The notes below the pieces were generated by a model. The model saw nothing but the letters and a program-made list of their open reading frames with translations. It had not been told where the DNA came from and ran no database searches. The position numbers and the translations under genes were made by a program. This document shows positions 183 to 7,977 of a stretch of 17,365 nucleotides of DNA, one piece after another. Within the stretch, counting starts at the first letter, position 1; the number at the start of each line of letters is the position of its first letter. Source of the DNA: a virus; IMG/VR virus record IMGVR_UViG_3300028833_002934; one strand, 5' to 3'.

Positions 183-211
183 ATTATATAATTTTTTTTT
201 TAAATTTTCAA
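183..211 (-). promoter_or_regulatory. Recurrent promoter module (minus strand: TTGAAA-17-TATAAT), transcribes leftward out of window
   Basis: Plus-strand tttcaa at 206-211 and attata at 183-188, with a 17 nt spacer. The module matches the copies at 5106, 7903, 12337 and 14878. Confidence 0.5.
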
Positions 212-1821
212 ATAGCCGTGTAATCTGCGATAACATCAGGGATACTAGAATTTAAATCAAATATTTCAGCGAATCTATCCTTATCAATCACATCATCTAA
301 TGTAATATAATATTTGACATCCCAAAGACGTTTGTCTATACGAGGTTTATTATTAAATACTTTAAAATATTCTGGGTTAGTATCAGGATCATATACATAA
401 ATGACATTATCATAATAAATAGGATTATTGTTATCATCATACCCAATTAACCAATGAAGGCAATCACAATGTTGTGCAAGATGAGAATAACCAGTTAGAT
501 CATCAACGACACATTCAGTTTCAAAACATTCTTCACAAATAGGATCATCTAAATCATCAATATAATAAAAATAATCTTTAGGAAGATAATCTCCGCAGCA
601 AGCGCAATAAGTTCCATTATCGCATTTTATGCACATTACGGCATTATCTCTTTCTCTATCTTCTATTGGTTGCCCACACCACATACATGTGGCTAAACCT
701 CCATAAGAAAATTCTGCCATATAATGCCAATTTGTTGCTTCTTTATCTTGCCATTCAGTTAAATGATATTTCCCTATTTTATTACGATTAATTCTTGCAC
801 GATGCGTATCAAGAGTCCCAAAATCATTATACATATATTGCTCAGGGGAAATATTAATAAGTAAATCATCATCTTCATTCCAAGGAATAGTATTAGCAAC
901 ATTTATTTCATCATTATCATAAGTCCATCCTAAATTATTTTCTGCCAATTCTTTAATCCACATTAAGACCGTATTTGTTAAATGTAGATCTTGGAAACAA
1001 TATCCTTTAATCTCTGACATCATTTCTGGATAAACAACGAATAATTCACGCCAATGTTTACTATTCCATTCCATACCTTGAATAGGCTCCATAGTATGTT
1101 CTGGATTATGCAAATATGCTACTAAAATATATGGAGAATTCATACACTCTATAGTGCCACATCTATAATCTCCATGATCCATCCAACTCATACAACTAGA
1201 CCAATTATTATTATTATCACTCATTGTCATAAAATCTAATGGATGGATTGATAAACAAAGTTCCCCATCAACCATTTTACTATTTAACATTTGAGAATGC
1301 CAAAGTCTAAAATTTTCAAAAATTTGTTCATCACATTTATATTTTTGTGCAATTTTAGATAAAATACGTAATGGGCGCATACCTTTTGATACTTTAAATT
1401 TTTCATTATCTGGTGGCAAATAATAGGTTGTCGTTGCATAAGGGTATTTATTATCTGCTAATACTGATAAATCAAAAGTATCCCTAATCATAGTATAAAC
1501 ACCATAATCTTGAGTTGACATAGGCCCCAAGACTTCTTTTTTTATCCACTATGAAAAATTCTCATAAGCTGGAGTATATTTCTCTATTGACATTTTTTTT
1601 ACTATTGCATCTGTATTATACATATAAGTATAAGGACGCCGCACAATAAAATTATTTCCTAAAAGTTTGTATAAAGTTTGTTTTTGGCGATCCCATTCGT
1701 GTAATATAATATCAAATCCACTAAAATCATGCTCTGGTTCATAATTATCATTAATGGGACCAAATGTTCTAATATAATTATAAATTAAATCTTTATCTTG
1801 TTCTGAAAGTTTTTCTATCAT
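208..1821 (-). CDS. Large Cys-rich hypothetical protein (~537 aa) if TAG at 1549-1551 is read through. Under the standard code it splits into two ORFs, 1549..1821 (90 aa) and 208..1530.
   Basis: Track ORFs 1549..1821 and 208..1530 share one frame (codon boundaries at 1821 and 1530 are both 0 mod 3). They are separated only by TAG at 1549-1551 plus 6 sense codons. RBS AAAGGAC lies upstream of ATG at 1821. The track's start at 1530 is TTG. The stop is TGA at 208-210. The C-terminal half carries many CxxC pairs. Function is not recognised. Confidence 0.5.
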
Positions 1822-1842
1822 TGTTTGTCCTTTAACAGCAAA

Positions 1843-1876
1843 AATTCAAAGGATTAAATATTAATCCTTTGAATTA
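1843..1876 (-). terminator. Intrinsic terminator-like hairpin between two minus-strand genes
   Basis: 14 bp perfect inverted repeat attcaaaggattaa/ttaatcctttgaat around a 3 nt loop. The plus-strand aaaaa at 1840-1844 is a U-run for the minus-strand transcript. The hairpin overlaps the TAA stop (1861-1863) of the upstream gene. Confidence 0.5.
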
Positions 1877-2793
1877 TCCTTTTCATTTACTTTATTATTC
1901 TTATCTTTCTTATTATTTAACATAAAATAAAGATATGGACTTCCACCCATTAACATCAACATAGTTGGATCAATATCTATATTATTTTTCTGTGTTAAAG
2001 CAAACAAAGCAAGTAAATTATTATTATTATTATTATCCTTAATAAACATTAAAGGAAGTAAACTACCAAATGGATTATTTGAATCAGCTTCTGGTAAATA
2101 ATCTGTAATAGATATAATAACAGTGACATAATTAAATCCAAATGGAGACATTGAAGGAAGGATTGTTAATTCTGTACCTTCATATGGGTTAATAACAACA
2201 AAACGGTTATCTTTAATTTCTTCAACAAACATCAAATTTCCATTATGAAGAACAATATCTCCAACCTCAACATCGCTTATTGCTTTTGGAAATTTATAGA
2301 AAATTTTAGAATTTTCAATTTCAATATTTAAAATATTAACATCAACAATAGCATTTCTCTAGCGATCAAAAGATACCCATTTATTCTCTTTATTTTTAAG
2401 AGCAATTCCAAAAGTAGAAAGACGTAAATTATTTGATGTATATGGGCCAAAACTAAAATCAGTATTACTCATTTTATCTTTTTGTTTTTCCTCCGCTAAT
2501 TTTTTCTCTATTATATCTTCTATAGACTACCATCCATTATTAGGCCATACATAAGATGACGATGTTAATGGTTGATAAGTAAAACTATAATCATTCGCAG
2601 TATAATCTCCTATTGAGATATTATTACTATATGTTTCTCCAGACTAAATAGTATATGTATCAGTAGATGATAGCCCAGTAACCTTGATACGATCATCTGC
2701 AATAGAAAACTATATACTACTATTATCATTACCACTTGTAATAGAATTTGAAGAACAAACTGTATTTACAGTGGATGTTAAATTATCAGACAT
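1861..2793 (-). CDS. Hypothetical protein, 310 aa, containing four in-frame TAG codons (recoded)
   Basis: ATG at 2793 lies 9 nt after GGAG. A single frame of 310 codons runs to TAA at 1861-1863. It is interrupted only by TAG at 2710-2712, 2644-2646, 2527-2529 and 2359-2361, with no in-frame TAA or TGA. The track saw only the last 124 aa (1861..2235). The N-terminus is Ser/Thr/Asn-rich. Confidence 0.6.
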
Positions 2794-2852
2794 TCTTTAC
2801 AACTCCAATACATTATTTTCTATATTAATTTTATCATTTTTTTTAAAGAATG

Positions 2853-3874: not shown

Positions 3875-4609
3875 TTATTCTACAATTCCTAAATCCTCCT
3901 TAATAGTGCATCGGGTCAGTACAGTCTGTTTAACAGCCTTATATGTAGTATGGTCTTTAATTGTTCCTGCCATATAATACATATGGCCTTCTTCAAGATG
4001 CTTAGCCATAGTGCTCCATGTAAAAGCATTACCAGCTTCATCGGTGAAAGTATGAAAAATACTAGTTCCATACATATTATTTACTTCAATTGCTCTAACA
4101 CAAGTCAGATTAAGAGTAATACGATCGCCAATTTTCCCAATCCAAACAGAAGTGCCCGGGTCATACAACTTTTCATCAACAATAGCAGTAATATCTTTAT
4201 CAGAAATTAACTGACCATCAAGAGAAATTTCATCCCATTCCAATTTAACAGGAGTGATTCCCGCAGGGATAGTCTCTGGCATTTCTTCAGATGACGGCAA
4301 ATACCATCCCCATAATTTAGTATAACGGCAAGGAGAAAGTTTAAACCAATCAAGAAGACTATAAGTATCACCTTTAAAAATCCAAATATAACCGGCTTCT
4401 CCAAAACCAAGAACATCCCTACGACTTTTTGCAGGCCGAATAATCGTTACTTCTGGATTATAACGACGATATTCTGCTTCACTATATGCTCGTACAACTT
4501 TTTCATGACCATTTTTCATACGAACTTTTACATACATTTTACCATTAACTTCATATGGCTCGCACAACTGTTCCAATTCCTGGTAAGATTTAGCAACTAA
4601 AGCACTCAT
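3875..4609 (-). CDS. Hypothetical protein, ~244 aa
   Basis: The track starts at GTG 4624. An ATG at 4609 with upstream AAGGGTGGA is the more plausible start. The start region overlaps the TGA stop of the upstream gene. Stop is TAA at 3875-3877. Confidence 0.65.
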   Translation of the reverse strand: MSALVAKSYQELEQLCEPYEVNGKMYVKVRMKNGHEKVVRAYSEAEYRRYNPEVTIIRPAKSRRDVLGFGEAGYIWIFKGDTYSLLDWFKLSPCRYTKLWGWYLPSSEEMPETIPAGITPVKLEWDEISLDGQLISDKDITAIVDEKLYDPGTSVWIGKIGDRITLNLTCVRAIEVNNMYGTSIFHTFTDEAGNAFTWSTMAKHLEEGHMYYMAGTIKDHTTYKAVKQTVLTRCTIKEDLGIVE

Positions 4610-4614
4610 TTTTA

Positions 4615-5073
4615 TCACATCCACCCTTCAAAAATCATATTAAGTTCTTTTACTGCTTCTGGATTATTATTCATAAAATTAACAACAAACATATTTGCTT
4701 CAAATTCATCAAGAATATGCCAATAATCAAAAGCATTATATACACTTTCTTTTTGAAACTTAAAAATAATTTGTTCAAGATCATCATAATTGCTATCTGT
4801 AAGACAATGCCCTAATTCGTGTAAAAAAGTTAAAACAGAATTAGTAGCATTGATATCGCAACCATATTCATGAAGAAATTGACGGAAATCATTATGAATA
4901 GGTTTATCTTGTTTTCCTATATAGATAACTTGTTCTTTCCAAGCATAACCAGATTCTTTATTATATAAAAAAGTAAGACCATTGAAATGAAGATATTTTT
5001 GTACCCAATTATTTAAATCATCATTAAGAGTTCTAGGAACACTTATGCCAAAGTGAGAAAAATAATATTTCAT
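4615..5073 (-). CDS. HExxH zinc-metallopeptidase-like hypothetical protein, 152 aa
   Basis: ATG at 5073 with GAGG RBS. Contains FLHELGHCL (HExxH) and sits directly downstream of a consensus promoter module. Confidence 0.65.
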   Translation of the reverse strand: MKYYFSHFGISVPRTLNDDLNNWVQKYLHFNGLTFLYNKESGYAWKEQVIYIGKQDKPIHNDFRQFLHEYGCDINATNSVLTFLHELGHCLTDSNYDDLEQIIFKFQKESVYNAFDYWHILDEFEANMFVVNFMNNNPEAVKELNMIFEGWM

Positions 5074-5105
5074 AAAAAATACCTCATTTCTTATTTTCTA
5101 TAAAT

Positions 5106-5134
5106 ATTATATAATATTTTTTTAAAATTTTCAA
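5106..5134 (-). promoter_or_regulatory. Promoter module TTGAAA-17-TATAAT driving gene 4615..5073
   Basis: Plus-strand tttcaa at 5129-5134 and attata at 5106-5111, with a 17 nt spacer. It belongs to a ~75 bp segment duplicated at 7861-7935. Confidence 0.55.
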
Positions 5135-5142
5135 TTAAAAAA

Positions 5143-5172
5143 TTAAAGAGGCAATACAAATTGCCCCTTTAA
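5143..5172 (-). terminator. Intrinsic terminator hairpin after gene 5174..5509
   Basis: Stem ttaaagaggcaat/attgcccctttaa (13 bp, one wobble) around loop acaa. A/T runs flank it on both sides. Confidence 0.5.
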
Positions 5173-5173
5173 T

Positions 5174-5509
5174 TTACCACCATTCACAAAATAGATACAT
5201 TTGTGGAGTTTCTGACGCTGCAATTTCTGGGAACTCTTTCTTAAATAAATTAATAAAATCTTCCCAATCTTTTAGATCTATTTCTCTAGACATATTCATA
5301 TTAATTGGTTCATAATAATCAGTAGAACTGAGAGTAAGACCGCAAAAAACATCGCTATCAGCAGCATAACTATTAATATCACAAAAATAATCTTCAAGTG
5401 TCATATAATTCGCATCATTTATATTTTCAATTTTGTTCATATAATTCTGATGTTCATCACTTGAAATAATATATCCATATCCAATTCTTGCAGAAGCATC
5501 AACGCTCAT
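5174..5509 (-). CDS. Hypothetical acidic protein, 111 aa; paralogue of 7551..7868
   Basis: GGAGATTAATT precedes ATG at 5509. The N-terminus MSVD....GYGY..S.E is shared with the protein at 7868. Stop is TAA. Confidence 0.7.
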   Translation of the reverse strand: MSVDASARIGYGYIISSDEHQNYMNKIENINDANYMTLEDYFCDINSYAADSDVFCGLTLSSTDYYEPINMNMSREIDLKDWEDFINLFKKEFPEIAASETPQMYLFCEWW

Positions 5510-5545
5510 AATTAATCTCCTTATATTTAAGATTAGTAAAAATAT

Positions 5546-5785
5546 TTATCTTACTTCAGGAACGCTAGTAATTCCAAACTGTTCAATATAAGAATTTAGA
5601 CTATCTTTTCTCCATTGATTATCAATAGGATTATTAGGATAATTCCAAATTAAATATTTTGCTTCTTCCCAAATAGATAAAAGAATTTCTTCTAACAATC
5701 CTTTATCATAACTAGCATAATATAAAAGAGTGTCAGTCGTTTCTGCTCGTTTTTCTAGTTTATATAAAATATAAATATTATTCAA
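5546..5785 (-). CDS. Small hypothetical protein, 79 aa; weak member of the tandem LLQEIL family
   Basis: The ORF has the motif DKGLLEEILLS. Its start overlaps the end of the upstream gene (5778..6029). Confidence 0.55.
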   Translation of the reverse strand: MNNIYILYKLEKRAETTDTLLYYASYDKGLLEEILLSIWEEAKYLIWNYPNNPIDNQWRKDSLNSYIEQFGITSVPEVR

Positions 5786-6029
5786 TATAATAATCCTCCA
5801 AATTTATAATTTCATAAGCAGAAGTAGCCATAGGAGCCGCAAATTTTTTCCACCATTCTTGTGGAGTATAATATTTAGTTAAAGATGGCAAATTAAATGG
5901 TAAGGAAAAACAATAAATTAACCATTGCTCATATTCTGTATCAAAATAACTATCCATAATTATTTCTTGAAGTAATTCTCTATCATTAGAAGTATAAGTA
6001 ATTTTTTCATTTATAAAAAGAGCATACAT
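5778..6029 (-). CDS. Small hypothetical protein, 83 aa; tandem paralogue family
   Basis: ATG at 6029 is preceded by AAGGGGA. It shares RELLQEIIMDSYF and the C-terminal LEDYYIE with its neighbours. Confidence 0.65.
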   Translation of the reverse strand: MYALFINEKITYTSNDRELLQEIIMDSYFDTEYEQWLIYCFSLPFNLPSLTKYYTPQEWWKKFAAPMATSAYEIINLEDYYIE

Positions 6030-6044
6030 AATTTTTCCCCTTAA

Positions 6045-6296
6045 TTATTCAATATAGCAATCTAAATCTATAATATATTGTTCGCATAAAAAAGGATGTT
6101 CTTTTTCTACTTTCCAAAAAGAAATAGCATCTTCTGGACAAAGCCTATATTTTGTGCCCACGGCATGGCATTGAAGATTATAAGTGTAGTAAGCAAAATC
6201 AAAATAATCATCTGCTAAAATTTCTTGAAGTAAATCTTTATCAGAAGAAATATATTTTAGATTTTCTCCTATGTAATAACCATATAATTTATTCAA
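6045..6296 (-). CDS. Small hypothetical protein, ~83 aa, probable TTG start; tandem paralogue family
   Basis: GGAGGA lies 8 nt before TTG at 6294-6296. The protein then begins (M)NKLYGYYIG...DKDLLQEILADDYF...DLDCYIE, parallel to gene 6289..6576. The long hydrophobic N-terminus in the track ORF overlaps the upstream gene in another frame and is likely an artefact. Confidence 0.5.
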   Translation of the reverse strand: MNKLYGYYIGENLKYISSDKDLLQEILADDYFDFAYYTYNLQCHAVGTKYRLCPEDAISFWKVEKEHPFLCEQYIIDLDCYIE

Positions 6297-6576
6297 CTCG
6301 ATATTCCTCCAAATCTTTAATAAATCGAGAAGATAAATGAGAATTAACAAAATTAGAATCTTTATCTTTGGCCTGATGCCAAAAAACACGAGGAGAAGAT
6401 ATTTCATCAATTTCATGAAGCCAATATACAGAAGAAAATGATGTAAGATAACTATACCAATGGTATGCTTCTTCATAATAATCATCCATCAAAATCTCTT
6501 GGAGTAATTCTTTGCTAGAAGACACTTTCATAAGCACACTACCTTTAAAATATCCATAAAGTTTATTTGTCTCCAT
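6289..6576 (-). CDS. Small hypothetical protein, 95 aa; tandem paralogue family
   Basis: Strong RBS GGAGGG precedes ATG at 6576. The protein reads METNKLYGYF...SKELLQEILMDDYY...LEEYRVE. The TAA stop overlaps the next gene's start. Confidence 0.65.
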   Translation of the reverse strand: METNKLYGYFKGSVLMKVSSSKELLQEILMDDYYEEAYHWYSYLTSFSSVYWLHEIDEISSPRVFWHQAKDKDSNFVNSHLSSRFIKDLEEYRVE

Positions 6577-6883
6577 GCTTTCCCTCCATATCGCATCTAA
6601 AAAAGAAATCATAAATATCATCATAAGATTCAAAAATTTCATTAAGTTTGGTATTCCAAACAGAACCGCATTTCATAACGCCATTTACGCAATCGAGAAC
6701 TTCTTCCGCAACGCTTTCGTAATCTTCATAAATTTCTTTACATTTCTTTTCAGTCATTTTACGGAGAAGAATCCATGCTTCGTTGGCACAAAGATGGTCC
6801 ATATTTGTATCAGGAGCATTATATTCTAAATCCATAATATCAGCGATTAATTCACACATATCACAAAAAATAGTTTGATCCAT
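6563..6883 (-). CDS. Hypothetical acidic protein, 106 aa
   Basis: ORF in the minus-strand operon. It overlaps the downstream gene by 14 nt. Confidence 0.6.
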   Translation of the reverse strand: MDQTIFCDMCELIADIMDLEYNAPDTNMDHLCANEAWILLRKMTEKKCKEIYEDYESVAEEVLDCVNGVMKCGSVWNTKLNEIFESYDDIYDFFFRCDMEGKHGDK

Positions 6884-7165
6884 TTATACTTCCTCCATCC
6901 ACTTATGATTGCGCTTTATAATAGTAGAATGTATATCAGAATGAAAATGTACTTTTAGTTTAAGATGTCGCATTTTCCCAGAATCATGTAAAGTTTCAAG
7001 TTCGTTCAAAATTTCGATATTATTTAAATCTAAAAAGAAAGTAGTAGTTCCCGCTTTATATGCGGCGCGCACATATTTAAGAGTATCGTTTACAGTTTTA
7101 AAATGCTCGTCATAGATATTACCGGCCGGTGTGGGCCGCAGGTCATCGACATAAATAAATTTCAT
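6884..7165 (-). CDS. Hypothetical protein, 93 aa
   Basis: ORF that abuts its neighbours (6563..6883 and 7162..7548) with no gap. Confidence 0.6.
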   Translation of the reverse strand: MKFIYVDDLRPTPAGNIYDEHFKTVNDTLKYVRAAYKAGTTTFFLDLNNIEILNELETLHDSGKMRHLKLKVHFHSDIHSTIIKRNHKWMEEV

Positions 7166-7548
7166 ACTATACCAATCTCCTTAAAATTTATTTTAGCATA
7201 TCTACCTTCTAAATTTGCTTGGTCAAATGGATTGGGATCTTCCGCCCATACATTAAAATTTTCTACAATACACTGATTGACCCAATACCAAATTTTAGAT
7301 TCTACAAAAAGCCCAGTTTCAAACCAATATTGTGCTGTTTTATTTGTTTTATTATCTTTACATTCTAATAAAACATATAATTGAGCGCCACTATTGTCAT
7401 AATAAGTATAAAATTTAGATTGCTTTTGGCAAATAGTAAAACGACCATTCCAAACCCAATCATTTTTAATATTTTTATTTAATTCACGAATTATTTTATT
7501 AATATATCGTTGATACTTCTTACGTTTTAAACTGGTTAATTTCATCAT
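7162..7548 (-). CDS. Hypothetical basic, Trp-rich protein, 128 aa
   Basis: ORF with a 4 nt overlap onto the next gene. Confidence 0.6.
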   Translation of the reverse strand: MMKLTSLKRKKYQRYINKIIRELNKNIKNDWVWNGRFTICQKQSKFYTYYDNSGAQLYVLLECKDNKTNKTAQYWFETGLFVESKIWYWVNQCIVENFNVWAEDPNPFDQANLEGRYAKINFKEIGIV

Positions 7549-7550
7549 AA

Positions 7551-7868
7551 TTACGTCACCGCAAATCCTATATAATGATGCGCGATTTCATTGGATTTAA
7601 TTCCAAAGATATTCTTATATTCGGCAAGCATTTTGTGTAATTCATCATGATCCATTTCATCTACTACTGGAATTTGATATACTTCACATCCATCAACGAT
7701 CGCAAGTGTAATGCCAAAAAATCCCTTATAAGATTCAGAATAACCATCAAGGATTGTAAAATAATCACTGTCGAATAATTCATCGCGTTTTTCTGGGGCA
7801 AGTGTAGATATTTTTTCATCAGAAACTTCATAACCATATCCATAAAAAACTCTATAATCAACGCTCAT
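7551..7868 (-). CDS. Hypothetical acidic protein, ~105 aa; paralogue of 5174..5509
   Basis: The probable start is the second ATG, at 7868 (MSVDYRVFYGYGY...), preceded by TGAGGAA. The first 12 nt, ATGAGCGTTGAT, are identical to the paralogue's start. Confidence 0.7.
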   Translation of the reverse strand: MSVDYRVFYGYGYEVSDEKISTLAPEKRDELFDSDYFTILDGYSESYKGFFGITLAIVDGCEVYQIPVVDEMDHDELHKMLAEYKNIFGIKSNEIAHHYIGFAVT

Positions 7869-7902
7869 AAAAAAATTCCTCATTTCTTATTTTTCTATAA
7901 AT

Positions 7903-7931
7903 ATTATATAATATTTTTTTAAAATTTTCAA
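7903..7931 (-). promoter_or_regulatory. Promoter module TTGAAA-17-TATAAT driving gene 7551..7868
   Basis: Plus-strand tttcaa at 7926-7931 and attata at 7903-7908, with a 17 nt spacer. It is a duplicate of the 5106-5134 module. Confidence 0.55.
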
Positions 7932-7977
7932 ATAAAAAAATACTTTACCTTAAAAATAAGGTAAAGTATTTTTTTTA
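7932..7977. terminator. Bidirectional intrinsic terminator directly after the MVP-like gene
   Basis: Perfect 13 bp stem atactttacctta/taaggtaaagtat around loop aaaa. It is flanked by an A8 run on the left and a T8 run on the right. Confidence 0.6.

Follow-up and report, generated by a model that had tools for sequence, protein, structure and literature searches.

The window analysed here, the whole 17,365-nucleotide (nt) stretch of IMG/VR virus record IMGVR_UViG_3300028833_002934, carries two near-identical cassettes consisting of promoter, ribosome-binding region and start codon, at 5143..5071 (copy A) and 7940..7866 (copy B) of the minus strand. We consider it likely that both belong to a multi-copy, strongly conserved family of expression cassettes that also serve as recombination junctions, in a large, AT-rich phage lineage in which TAG is recoded. 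Every gene between position 1 and ~10,500 of the window lies on the minus strand, and GC content varies between 26 and 38%. An assembly artefact was ruled out by three independent assemblies that match the window at 99.7–99.99% identity. A megablast of window positions 4600-8000 against 50,697 phage records returned no DNA-level match. Syntenic loci were found by a profile search with MSVD, the family to which two genes next to the cassettes belong; the proteins retrieved on long contigs led to the loci, which were then fetched. These related loci from metagenomic phage contigs are denoted L001, L003, L004, L009 and so on, of which L001, L003 and L004 are syntenic with the window.

The elements of the two copies, and of the hairpins beside them, are the following:

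Copy A, 5143..5071, minus strand: T-run, −35 box TTGAAA (5134..5129), spacer, −10 box TATAAT (5111..5106).
Leader of copy A, 5099..5082, minus strand: AGAAAATAAGAAATGAGG, with the Shine-Dalgarno (SD) sequence GAGG at 5085..5082 and the start codon ATG at 5073..5071.
Copy B, 7940..7866, minus strand: T-run, −35 box TTGAAA (7931..7926), 17-nt A-rich spacer, −10 box TATAAT (7908..7903).
Leader of copy B, 7896..7878, minus strand: AGAAAAATAAGAAATGAGG, with the SD sequence GAGG at 7881..7878 and the start codon ATG at 7868..7866.
Terminator hairpin beside copy A, 5175..5140, minus strand: putative, 16 bp and a T-run; predicted RNA fold −18.9 kcal/mol, z = −7.2.
Terminator hairpin beside copy B, 7975..7934, minus strand: putative, 19 bp, flanked by an A-run and a T-run; predicted RNA fold −21.1 kcal/mol, z = −8.0.

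In both copies the T-run, TTGAAA, a 17-nt A-rich spacer, TATAAT, ATTTAT and the purine stretch AGAAAA(A)TAAGAAATGAGG follow one another in this order, after which 8–9 nt of the form (t/a)aTTTTTT(T) lead to the ATG. The promoter agrees with the consensus at 11 of 12 positions. The purine-rich leader, 18 nt long in copy A and 19 nt in copy B, ends in GAGG at 8–9 nt from the start codon in both copies, and shows no excess of structure over shuffled sequence (z = −0.7 and −1.35 for the two leaders). The hairpin at 7975..7934 is symmetric and reads as a putative bidirectional intrinsic terminator, which would end the vault-protein-like gene and adjoins copy B. That at 5175..5140 is a putative intrinsic terminator of the operon behind copy B; it overlaps the stop codon of the MSVD-A gene and adjoins copy A.

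Pairwise alignment from the T-run through the ATG revealed a single substitution and two 1-nt indels (AAAA against AAAAA, t or a after GAGG, and one additional T). This bears out the sequence-only reading, made earlier on this DNA, that near-identical cassettes extend over the start codon, the SD sequence and the whole TTGAAA-17-TATAAT promoter; its coordinates were otherwise right, with the first interval, 5085-5140, missing the part from SD to ATG that reaches 5071. When 14 promoter modules were extracted from the window and compared pairwise by gapped identity, A and B were the closest pair, with 92% identity over 70 nt against 82% for the next pair. They are thus more similar than other AT-rich promoter modules of the window are to each other, among which the background is high (mean 64%). 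The excess resides mainly in the transcribed leader (87%, compared to 77% or less in other pairs). The promoter core is not special to A and B: the 29-nt core TTGAAAATTTTAAAAAAATATTATATAAT occurs in three exact copies (5134..5106, 7931..7903 and 12365..12337) and seven times with up to three mismatches, where shuffled sequences give an expectation of 0.00, and all 14 modules have the spacer motif in common. The third exact core (12365..12337, minus strand) is followed by a leader of a different class (ATATTTGTAAAAAAGATAAAAAATAA...).

The two copies keep their identities at orthologous loci. In L001, L003 and L004 the A locus holds an A-type cassette (AAAA, GAGGt) and the B locus a B-type leader (AAAAA, GAGGa), and the diagnostic variants are likewise kept in L009. 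Orthologues of copy A in L001, L003, L015, L056, L066 and L100, and of copy B in L003, L009 and L016, are 98–100% identical to the window copies at loci where the adjacent coding DNA (first 300 nt of the gene) is only 64–90% identical. For example, the copy B cassette is 100% identical in L009 and 98% in L003, against 65 and 69%, respectively, for the first 300 nt of the downstream gene, and the copy A cassette is 100% identical in L066, against 77%. As the cassette is far better conserved than the gene after it at these loci, the copies appear old and under strong purifying selection. Copies were not closer to each other within a genome than to their orthologues, and the same diagnostic differences between A and B recur at all of these loci. 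On these comparisons, the similarity of A and B would be due to common descent of cassette copies under strong purifying selection and not to a recent duplication in this genome.

Two loci depart from this pattern. L033 (Ga0326511_10030531) has an A-type leader variant (AAAA, GAGGt) ahead of a B-type MSVD gene. In L054 the counterpart of copy A is 93% identical and lies ahead of the 152-amino-acid (aa) gene, but its −35 box is a different one, and so are the upstream gene and context. Both look like further exchanges or conversions at the level of the cassette. L033 is also the one case suggestive of concerted evolution, by gene conversion, among copies that are otherwise highly invariant.

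The genes next to the copies bear on the same question:

MSVD-B, 7868..7551, minus strand: 105 aa, first gene after copy B; ORFan.
MSVD-A, 5509..5174, minus strand: 111 aa, last gene of the copy-B operon, with its own SD region AAGGAGA.
152-aa gene, 5073..4615, minus strand: product MKYYFSHFG..., behind copy A; unrelated to the MSVD family.

MSVD-B and MSVD-A are diverged paralogues, as had been proposed (BLASTP 25% identity, E = 1e-6; 25–27% protein identity overall), and in the window their first 12 coding nt are indeed identical (ATGAGCGTTGAT). Both subfamilies were retrieved from metagenomes with one joint profile, and in an alignment of 25 sequences M1, G10-Y-G-Y13, K27, Y43, F50, G52, L55 and Y99 are invariant throughout both. 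A recent segmental duplication within this genome, copying promoter, ribosome-binding site and start codon and perhaps the start of the MSVD gene with them, would account for A and B being the most similar pair of modules in the window (92%) and for the 12 identical nucleotides. Nevertheless, the differences specific to A and B are kept at orthologous loci where the coding DNA differs by 10–35%, copy A is not attached to an MSVD paralogue, and the spacing does not match, the promoter copies being 2797 nt apart and the paralogue starts 2359 nt. Besides, the paralogues are only 25–27% identical, and MSVD orthologues use other synonymous codons at the gene start (ATGAGTATTAAT, ATGGGTGTTGAT), so the shared 12 nt reflect conserved residues and chance and not a recent conversion. 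Such a duplication is thus very unlikely. The sequence-only reading had listed the similarity of the cassettes and the paralogy as separate matters, and rightly so: the two are not linked, since copy A stands ahead of the unrelated 152-aa gene and not of MSVD-A.

The leader pattern ATAGAAAA(N0-1)TAAGAAATGAGG was found in five stretches of viral contigs and 89 metagenome stretches; among the latter, L043 and L061 are parts of NCBI contig JAEEGL016295987 (GCA_016648615). Four of the five viral-contig copies, exact and comprising the whole ~60-nt cassette, are on a single contig of 239,565 bp, ahead of four unrelated genes. In the metagenome stretches pooled with other loci, 89 instances have a promoter ahead of the leader; they represent 38 different upstream contexts and 25 families of downstream genes, one of which is a third MSVD subfamily (MSVNYSAKYGKG...; hhalign probability 98%). 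Within the family, similarity begins at about −40 and stops at GAGG, in agreement with the boundaries of the functional unit.

A multi-copy sequence with such sharp boundaries ahead of unrelated genes could be imagined as an autonomous mobile element, either similar to a miniature inverted-repeat transposable element or targeted by a homing enzyme, that inserts itself ahead of genes. But the cassettes have neither terminal inverted repeats nor target-site duplications, their boundaries are those of a functional promoter and ribosome-binding site, and all copies point the same way with respect to the gene behind them. No pairs of empty and filled sites with duplicated target bases were seen here, and the 20 window open reading frames (ORFs) scanned against Pfam and/or PHROGs gave no match to transposase or homing-endonuclease families. 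An HNH gene was called in L004 and in L108, in both cases away from cassettes. This explanation is extremely unlikely.

The leader is also found outside phages. Its 21-mer ATAGAAAAATAAGAAATGAGG forms an intergenic ribosome-binding region in contigs of bacterial metagenome-assembled genomes (L111, L114, L116, L118 and L119), and occurs in L055 as well. The genomes concerned belong to uncultured Bacilli and Erysipelotrichaceae with 28–30% GC; L116, with the same context, was deposited as Treponema sp. The flanking genes we take to be rpsF (upstream) and ssb (product starting MNRV.LVGR). The bacterial 21-mer may give a clue to the host group; alternatively, it may just be a sequence that supports strong initiation in general.

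Evidence that cassettes act as recombination junctions came in the first place from the module upstream of copy B:

P10489 module, 10495..10426, minus strand: TTGATT-N17-TATAAT promoter and leader ATAGAAAAAATAATAAAGGAG, ahead of the vault-protein-like gene.
Vault-protein-like gene, 10425..7978, minus strand: 815 codons, with TAG at codon 6 (10410..10408).

L001 and L004 lack the segment 10433..7924, which holds the vault-like gene and its terminator; the module is present in the window, L003 and L009. In L001 the blocks flanking the missing module overlap by 49 nt, within the promoter. A six-sequence alignment showed that in L001 and L004 the promoter follows P10489 as far as TATAATAT and copy B beyond it. 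Such a hybrid is what an exchange between P10489 and copy B, in either direction, would be expected to leave as the one chimeric cassette.

A second junction was revealed by a 100-nt identity scan of the window against L003. Identity was 91–99% over the vault-like gene and copy B, fell to 60–77% exactly over MSVD-B (7852..7553) and returned to 94–99% from 7552 onwards. Between MSVD-B and its counterpart L003:8001-8315 the synonymous divergence (dS) is 1.03, against 0.09–0.16 for the neighbours, with a ratio of non-synonymous to synonymous divergence (dN/dS) of 0.25 and an amino-acid identity of 63%. The high dS combined with the low dN/dS indicates that a divergent allele of MSVD-B was swapped in, as opposed to fast evolution in place, and copy B would form the left boundary of this swap. 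MSVD-A likewise exceeds its neighbours in divergence (76% amino-acid identity, dN/dS 0.44), and in L004 its place is taken by a 243-aa gene whose right breakpoint, window position 5140, is the upstream edge of copy A. In the wider family, one and the same upstream context leads, via the cassette, into different genes (U6 to D5 or D8, U7 to D6 or D9, and others), and different upstream contexts lead into the same gene. The earlier suggestion of modular duplication or recombination of cassettes thus held in part. Recombination is borne out by the hybrid promoters, the mosaic blocks that end at cassettes and the alternative genes behind one upstream context, whereas duplication within this element is contradicted by at least five related genomes in which the A and B variants each keep to their own locus, and is further disfavoured by the cassette being a multi-copy family ahead of many unrelated genes.

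The junctions also bear on whether the similarity could be purely functional, the cassette being kept at, or having converged on, an optimum for polymerase and ribosome, with the junctions incidental in a plastic region. The conservation of the cassette much beyond that of the flanking genes agrees with this, as do the presence of the leader 21-mer between what we take to be rpsF and ssb in Bacilli and Erysipelotrichaceae, where it may be just a good initiation region, and the fact that some breakpoints lie away from cassettes. Yet identity over ~60 nt, including non-consensus positions of the spacer and the discriminator, is beyond the reach of convergence; the hybrid promoter of L001 and L004 places a crossover within the cassette; and several upstream contexts switch to alternative genes exactly there. 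A purely functional origin is quite improbable.

Several observations weigh against the view of the cassettes as conserved recombination junctions. Deletion and insertion fit the vault-module event equally, and the genomes without the vault-like gene may all descend from one event. The hint that crossover points differ between L014 and L033 on the one hand and L001 and L029 on the other rests on single nucleotides. P10489 and copy B are only ~75% alike, and the exact identity at the crossover, 8–9 nt, is short for classical homologous recombination. Breakpoints also occur at gene ends, as for the right edge of the MSVD-B swap (~7552), the insertion of a 98-aa gene in L003 and the copy number of tandem paralogues, so the cassettes are not the sole recombination sites. 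The terminator hairpin is not common to all family members, being absent from the L010 and L011 contexts. Finally, the strength of the promoters, their early timing and the function of the leader are read from the sequence alone, and a leader so extremely conserved suggests that it does more than serve as a plain ribosome-binding site, a further function that lies outside the explanation proposed.

A regulatory target is one candidate for such a function. In each copy the −10 hexamer lies at the centre of a perfect 18-bp palindrome, AAATATTATATAATATTT (5102-5119 in A and 7899-7916 in B), which recurs with one mismatch in two further modules (12333-12350 and 14874-14891), where 0.01 are expected. 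The palindrome may serve as an operator, or may merely result from AT-only sequence on either side of the palindromic ATTATATAAT. In phage T4, RegA and RegB act on the ribosome-binding sites of early mRNA. By analogy, the invariant part of the cassette might be chiefly a regulatory target, with the palindrome as an operator or the leader RNA bound or cleaved by a phage factor; the cassettes would then define a co-regulated regulon, and recombination would be a by-product. Besides the palindrome, this accommodates a leader that is invariant across genomes whose neighbouring coding DNA diverges by up to 35% and that is retained even behind promoters with different cores (L007, L008). On the other hand, ATTATATAAT is inherently palindromic and AT-only flanks ease its extension, the same 21-mer is an ordinary ribosome-binding region in bacteria, no candidate regulator was found, and the operon proteins had no informative family match in Pfam or PHROGs. 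The idea has some chance of being right, though we hold it unlikely as the chief explanation; it is compatible with, and not exclusive of, conserved cassettes that double as recombination junctions.

The leader also holds an ATG (aaATGAGG; window 5087..5071 and 7883..7866). In copy A and most orthologues of B it opens a mini-ORF of five codons, MR(Y/N)FL, whose stop overlaps the main start (ATGA); in the window copy B the extra T puts it in frame with the MSVD-B gene. The pattern varies across other members of the family and is probably incidental. An upstream-ORF reading of this ATG (ATGAGG...) was dropped, frame and stop not being constant between copies.

Under the explanation that we favour, each unit would consist of an intrinsic terminator for the preceding unit, optional across the family, a near-consensus promoter of sigma-70/sigma-A type with a conserved A-rich spacer, and an invariant, unstructured, purine-rich leader of 18–19 nt with GAGG as SD 8–9 nt ahead of the start codon. 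Unmodified host RNA polymerase would fire these promoters unaided by phage factors, so that expression would be of early type; the unstructured leader with GAGG would provide uniform and efficient translation initiation; and the terminator would insulate each unit against read-through. Copy B would drive a ten-gene operon of small ORFans (7868..5174), with MSVD-B first and its old paralogue MSVD-A last, and copy A would start the next operon, from 5073 downwards. The ~60 nt of near-identical sequence recur at many intergenic sites and, as the comparisons show, mark the junctions at which gene modules have been lost, gained or exchanged for divergent alleles.

The genome itself appears to be TAG-recoded. 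The 23 minus-strand genes end in TAA (16) or TGA (7) and none in TAG, and in-frame TAG codons are present in three window genes: the vault-like gene (codon 6), 2796..1861 (four) and ~1845..208 (one, at ~1548). The L003 orthologue of the vault-like gene, 99% identical, has CAG (Gln) where the window has TAG at codon 6, and in-frame TAGs are also found in the orthologues of L001, L003 and L004. By contrast, the operons after copies A and B contain no in-frame TAG at all, which is consistent with their being expressed ahead of the action of any recoding machinery.

A more far-reaching version would see in the leader and the palindromic −10 region a phage-wide early regulon under a dedicated phage factor that binds or cleaves them, combined with an integron-like exchange of cassettes without integrase, in which mini-circles are excised and integrate again at any other copy. 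This exchange would move ORFans and vault-protein-like cargo between TAG-recoded jumbo phages outside the T4 superfamily. We regard this combination as rather improbable.

On the minus strand the modules follow one another as P10489, the vault-protein-like gene, its terminator, copy B, the ten small genes (7868 to 5174) and, after the terminator of MSVD-A, copy A, the 152-aa gene (5073..4615) and further genes. The interior of the copy-B operon is made up as follows:

Copy-B operon middle, 7548..5546, minus strand: seven tightly packed small ORFans with no in-frame TAG.
Their ORFs, minus strand: 7548..7162, 7165..6884, 6883..6563, 6576..6289, 6296..6045, 6029..5778 and 5785..5546.

Three of them (6576..6289, 6296..6045 and 6029..5778) are tandem paralogues with the common motif ...LYGY...S(S/D)K(E/D)LLQEIL..., whose copy number or arrangement in L003 and L004 differs from that in the window. 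The proteins of this operon, the 152-aa protein and the neighbouring small proteins had no Pfam match and at most weak PHROGs matches to families of unknown function. MSVD-B was modelled with AlphaFold2 at good quality (predicted local distance difference test score 84.4) as a small alpha/beta protein. Nothing in the PDB matched the model significantly (best E = 0.38), and among viral structures there were only weak, uncharacterised matches (best E = 4e-3, template modelling score ~0.6). Nine candidates from a search of IMG/VR with an MSVD-B peptide pattern yielded none that was confirmed.

The vault-like ORF, of 780 aa, matches Pfam MVP_shoulder (1.7e-20) and Vault_3 (1.3e-8), and its closest relatives among deposited phages, 39–41% identical, are in uncultured huge phages of 462–735 kb. 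A preprint has reported MVP homologues in viruses (10.1101/2023.11.10.566534). No cassette-type promoter was found on the scanned strand of the vault-homologue region of the 735-kb phage LR756501; the cassette family is thus not common to this phage, at least at the vault locus.

Elsewhere in the window, an ORF-poor stretch with positive GC skew (13290-13770) contains an iteron-like array of ~8 copies, in both orientations, of roughly CGTCAAAAAGTTGGTAAATTTTACCGAG, with the internal palindrome CGGTAAAATTTACCG. Similar repeats are present in L001, L003 and L004, and the array may be a replication origin or a protein-binding array. At 15316..15205 and 15118..15090 of the minus strand, consensus promoters are directly followed by an A8-N3-T8 hairpin (TATAATaccAAAAAAAActaTTTTTTTT) in short, GC-rich segments without ORFs, an arrangement conserved in relatives (L001:151, L003:412, L004:2987). 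These segments may be small RNAs or attenuators; ARAGORN and Rfam scans of the window detected no RNA genes, neither tRNA nor Rfam match.

How the cassettes stand with respect to known systems can be judged from three comparisons. The T4 early, T5 and SPO1-type promoter families are near-consensus host-type promoters, used by unmodified host RNA polymerase immediately after infection. The cassettes resemble them in the presence of many near-consensus promoters and in conservation that extends into the A-rich spacer and the upstream tract. Those families, however, are defined by promoter sequence and measured activity, whereas here conservation continues through the leader to the SD sequence and the cassettes are recombination junctions. 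With integrons the likeness consists of short conserved sequences (attC, in integrons) flanking small, mostly unknown genes, in modules that are gained, lost and reordered. Integrons, however, depend on a tyrosine recombinase, on structured attC sites and on a single promoter for all cassettes, whereas no integrase or attC-like fold is present here and each module has its own promoter. Cassette exchange here appears to rely on general recombination, either homologous or driven by microhomology.

The third comparison is with the promoter early stem-loops (PeSLs) of T4-type phages, in which a stem-loop terminator and an AT-rich tract are combined with a strong sigma-70-like promoter and with an SD sequence and start codon (Arbiol et al. 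2010, PMC2839356). PeSLs number ~50 per genome, mostly ahead of ORFans in hyperplastic regions, and they flank indels, excision leaving a chimeric PeSL behind (PMC2839356; Comeau et al. 2014, PMC4122927). Like PeSLs, the cassettes are repeated intergenic promoters close to the sigma-70 consensus, with 11 of 12 consensus positions and a core found seven times (up to three mismatches) against an expectation of 0. Like them, they have a stable stem-loop within or next to the promoter and an AT-rich tract upstream of the −35 box, here hairpins (predicted terminators) with a T-run adjoining that box, and at the 3′ end the SD sequence and start codon of the downstream gene, here GAGG 8–9 nt before ATG. 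They also occupy plastic regions ahead of ORFans, here small genes without Pfam match and a gene content varying between relatives, and they bound indels and replacements with a chimeric motif at the junction, here the hybrid promoter of the vault module, the MSVD-B swap and the different genes behind one upstream context.

There are differences as well. Mini-circles and promoter and terminator activity have been demonstrated experimentally for PeSLs, whereas the cassettes are known as sequence only. PeSLs occur in T4-type phages, the cassettes in a TAG-recoded lineage of ~30% GC known only from metagenomes; no T4 core gene is present within the 17-kb window, a span too short to settle taxonomy, and the vault-like protein is its only protein link to deposited phages. 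Here the stem-loop is placed upstream of the −35 box and some copies lack it, and the transcribed leader is invariant over 18–19 nt, a trait not stressed for PeSLs.

Shuffling of promoter/terminator cassettes has hitherto been described only for T4-type phages, and the present findings suggest that variable regions are shaped in the same way in large phages of an unrelated, uncultured lineage with a recoded stop codon. MSVD-B would be a hot-swapped gene behind a cassette, of the sort expected in host takeover or counter-defence, and the vault-protein-like gene a movable module bounded by two cassettes. The 60-nt signature could be used to find early-type genes and module boundaries of this lineage in metagenomes. 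Judged by their sequence-level features, all of those that define PeSLs being present and the invariant leader being the sole distinctive trait, the cassettes would be PeSL-like elements of a different phage lineage: a clean comparative case and a lineage marker, and not a new kind of system.

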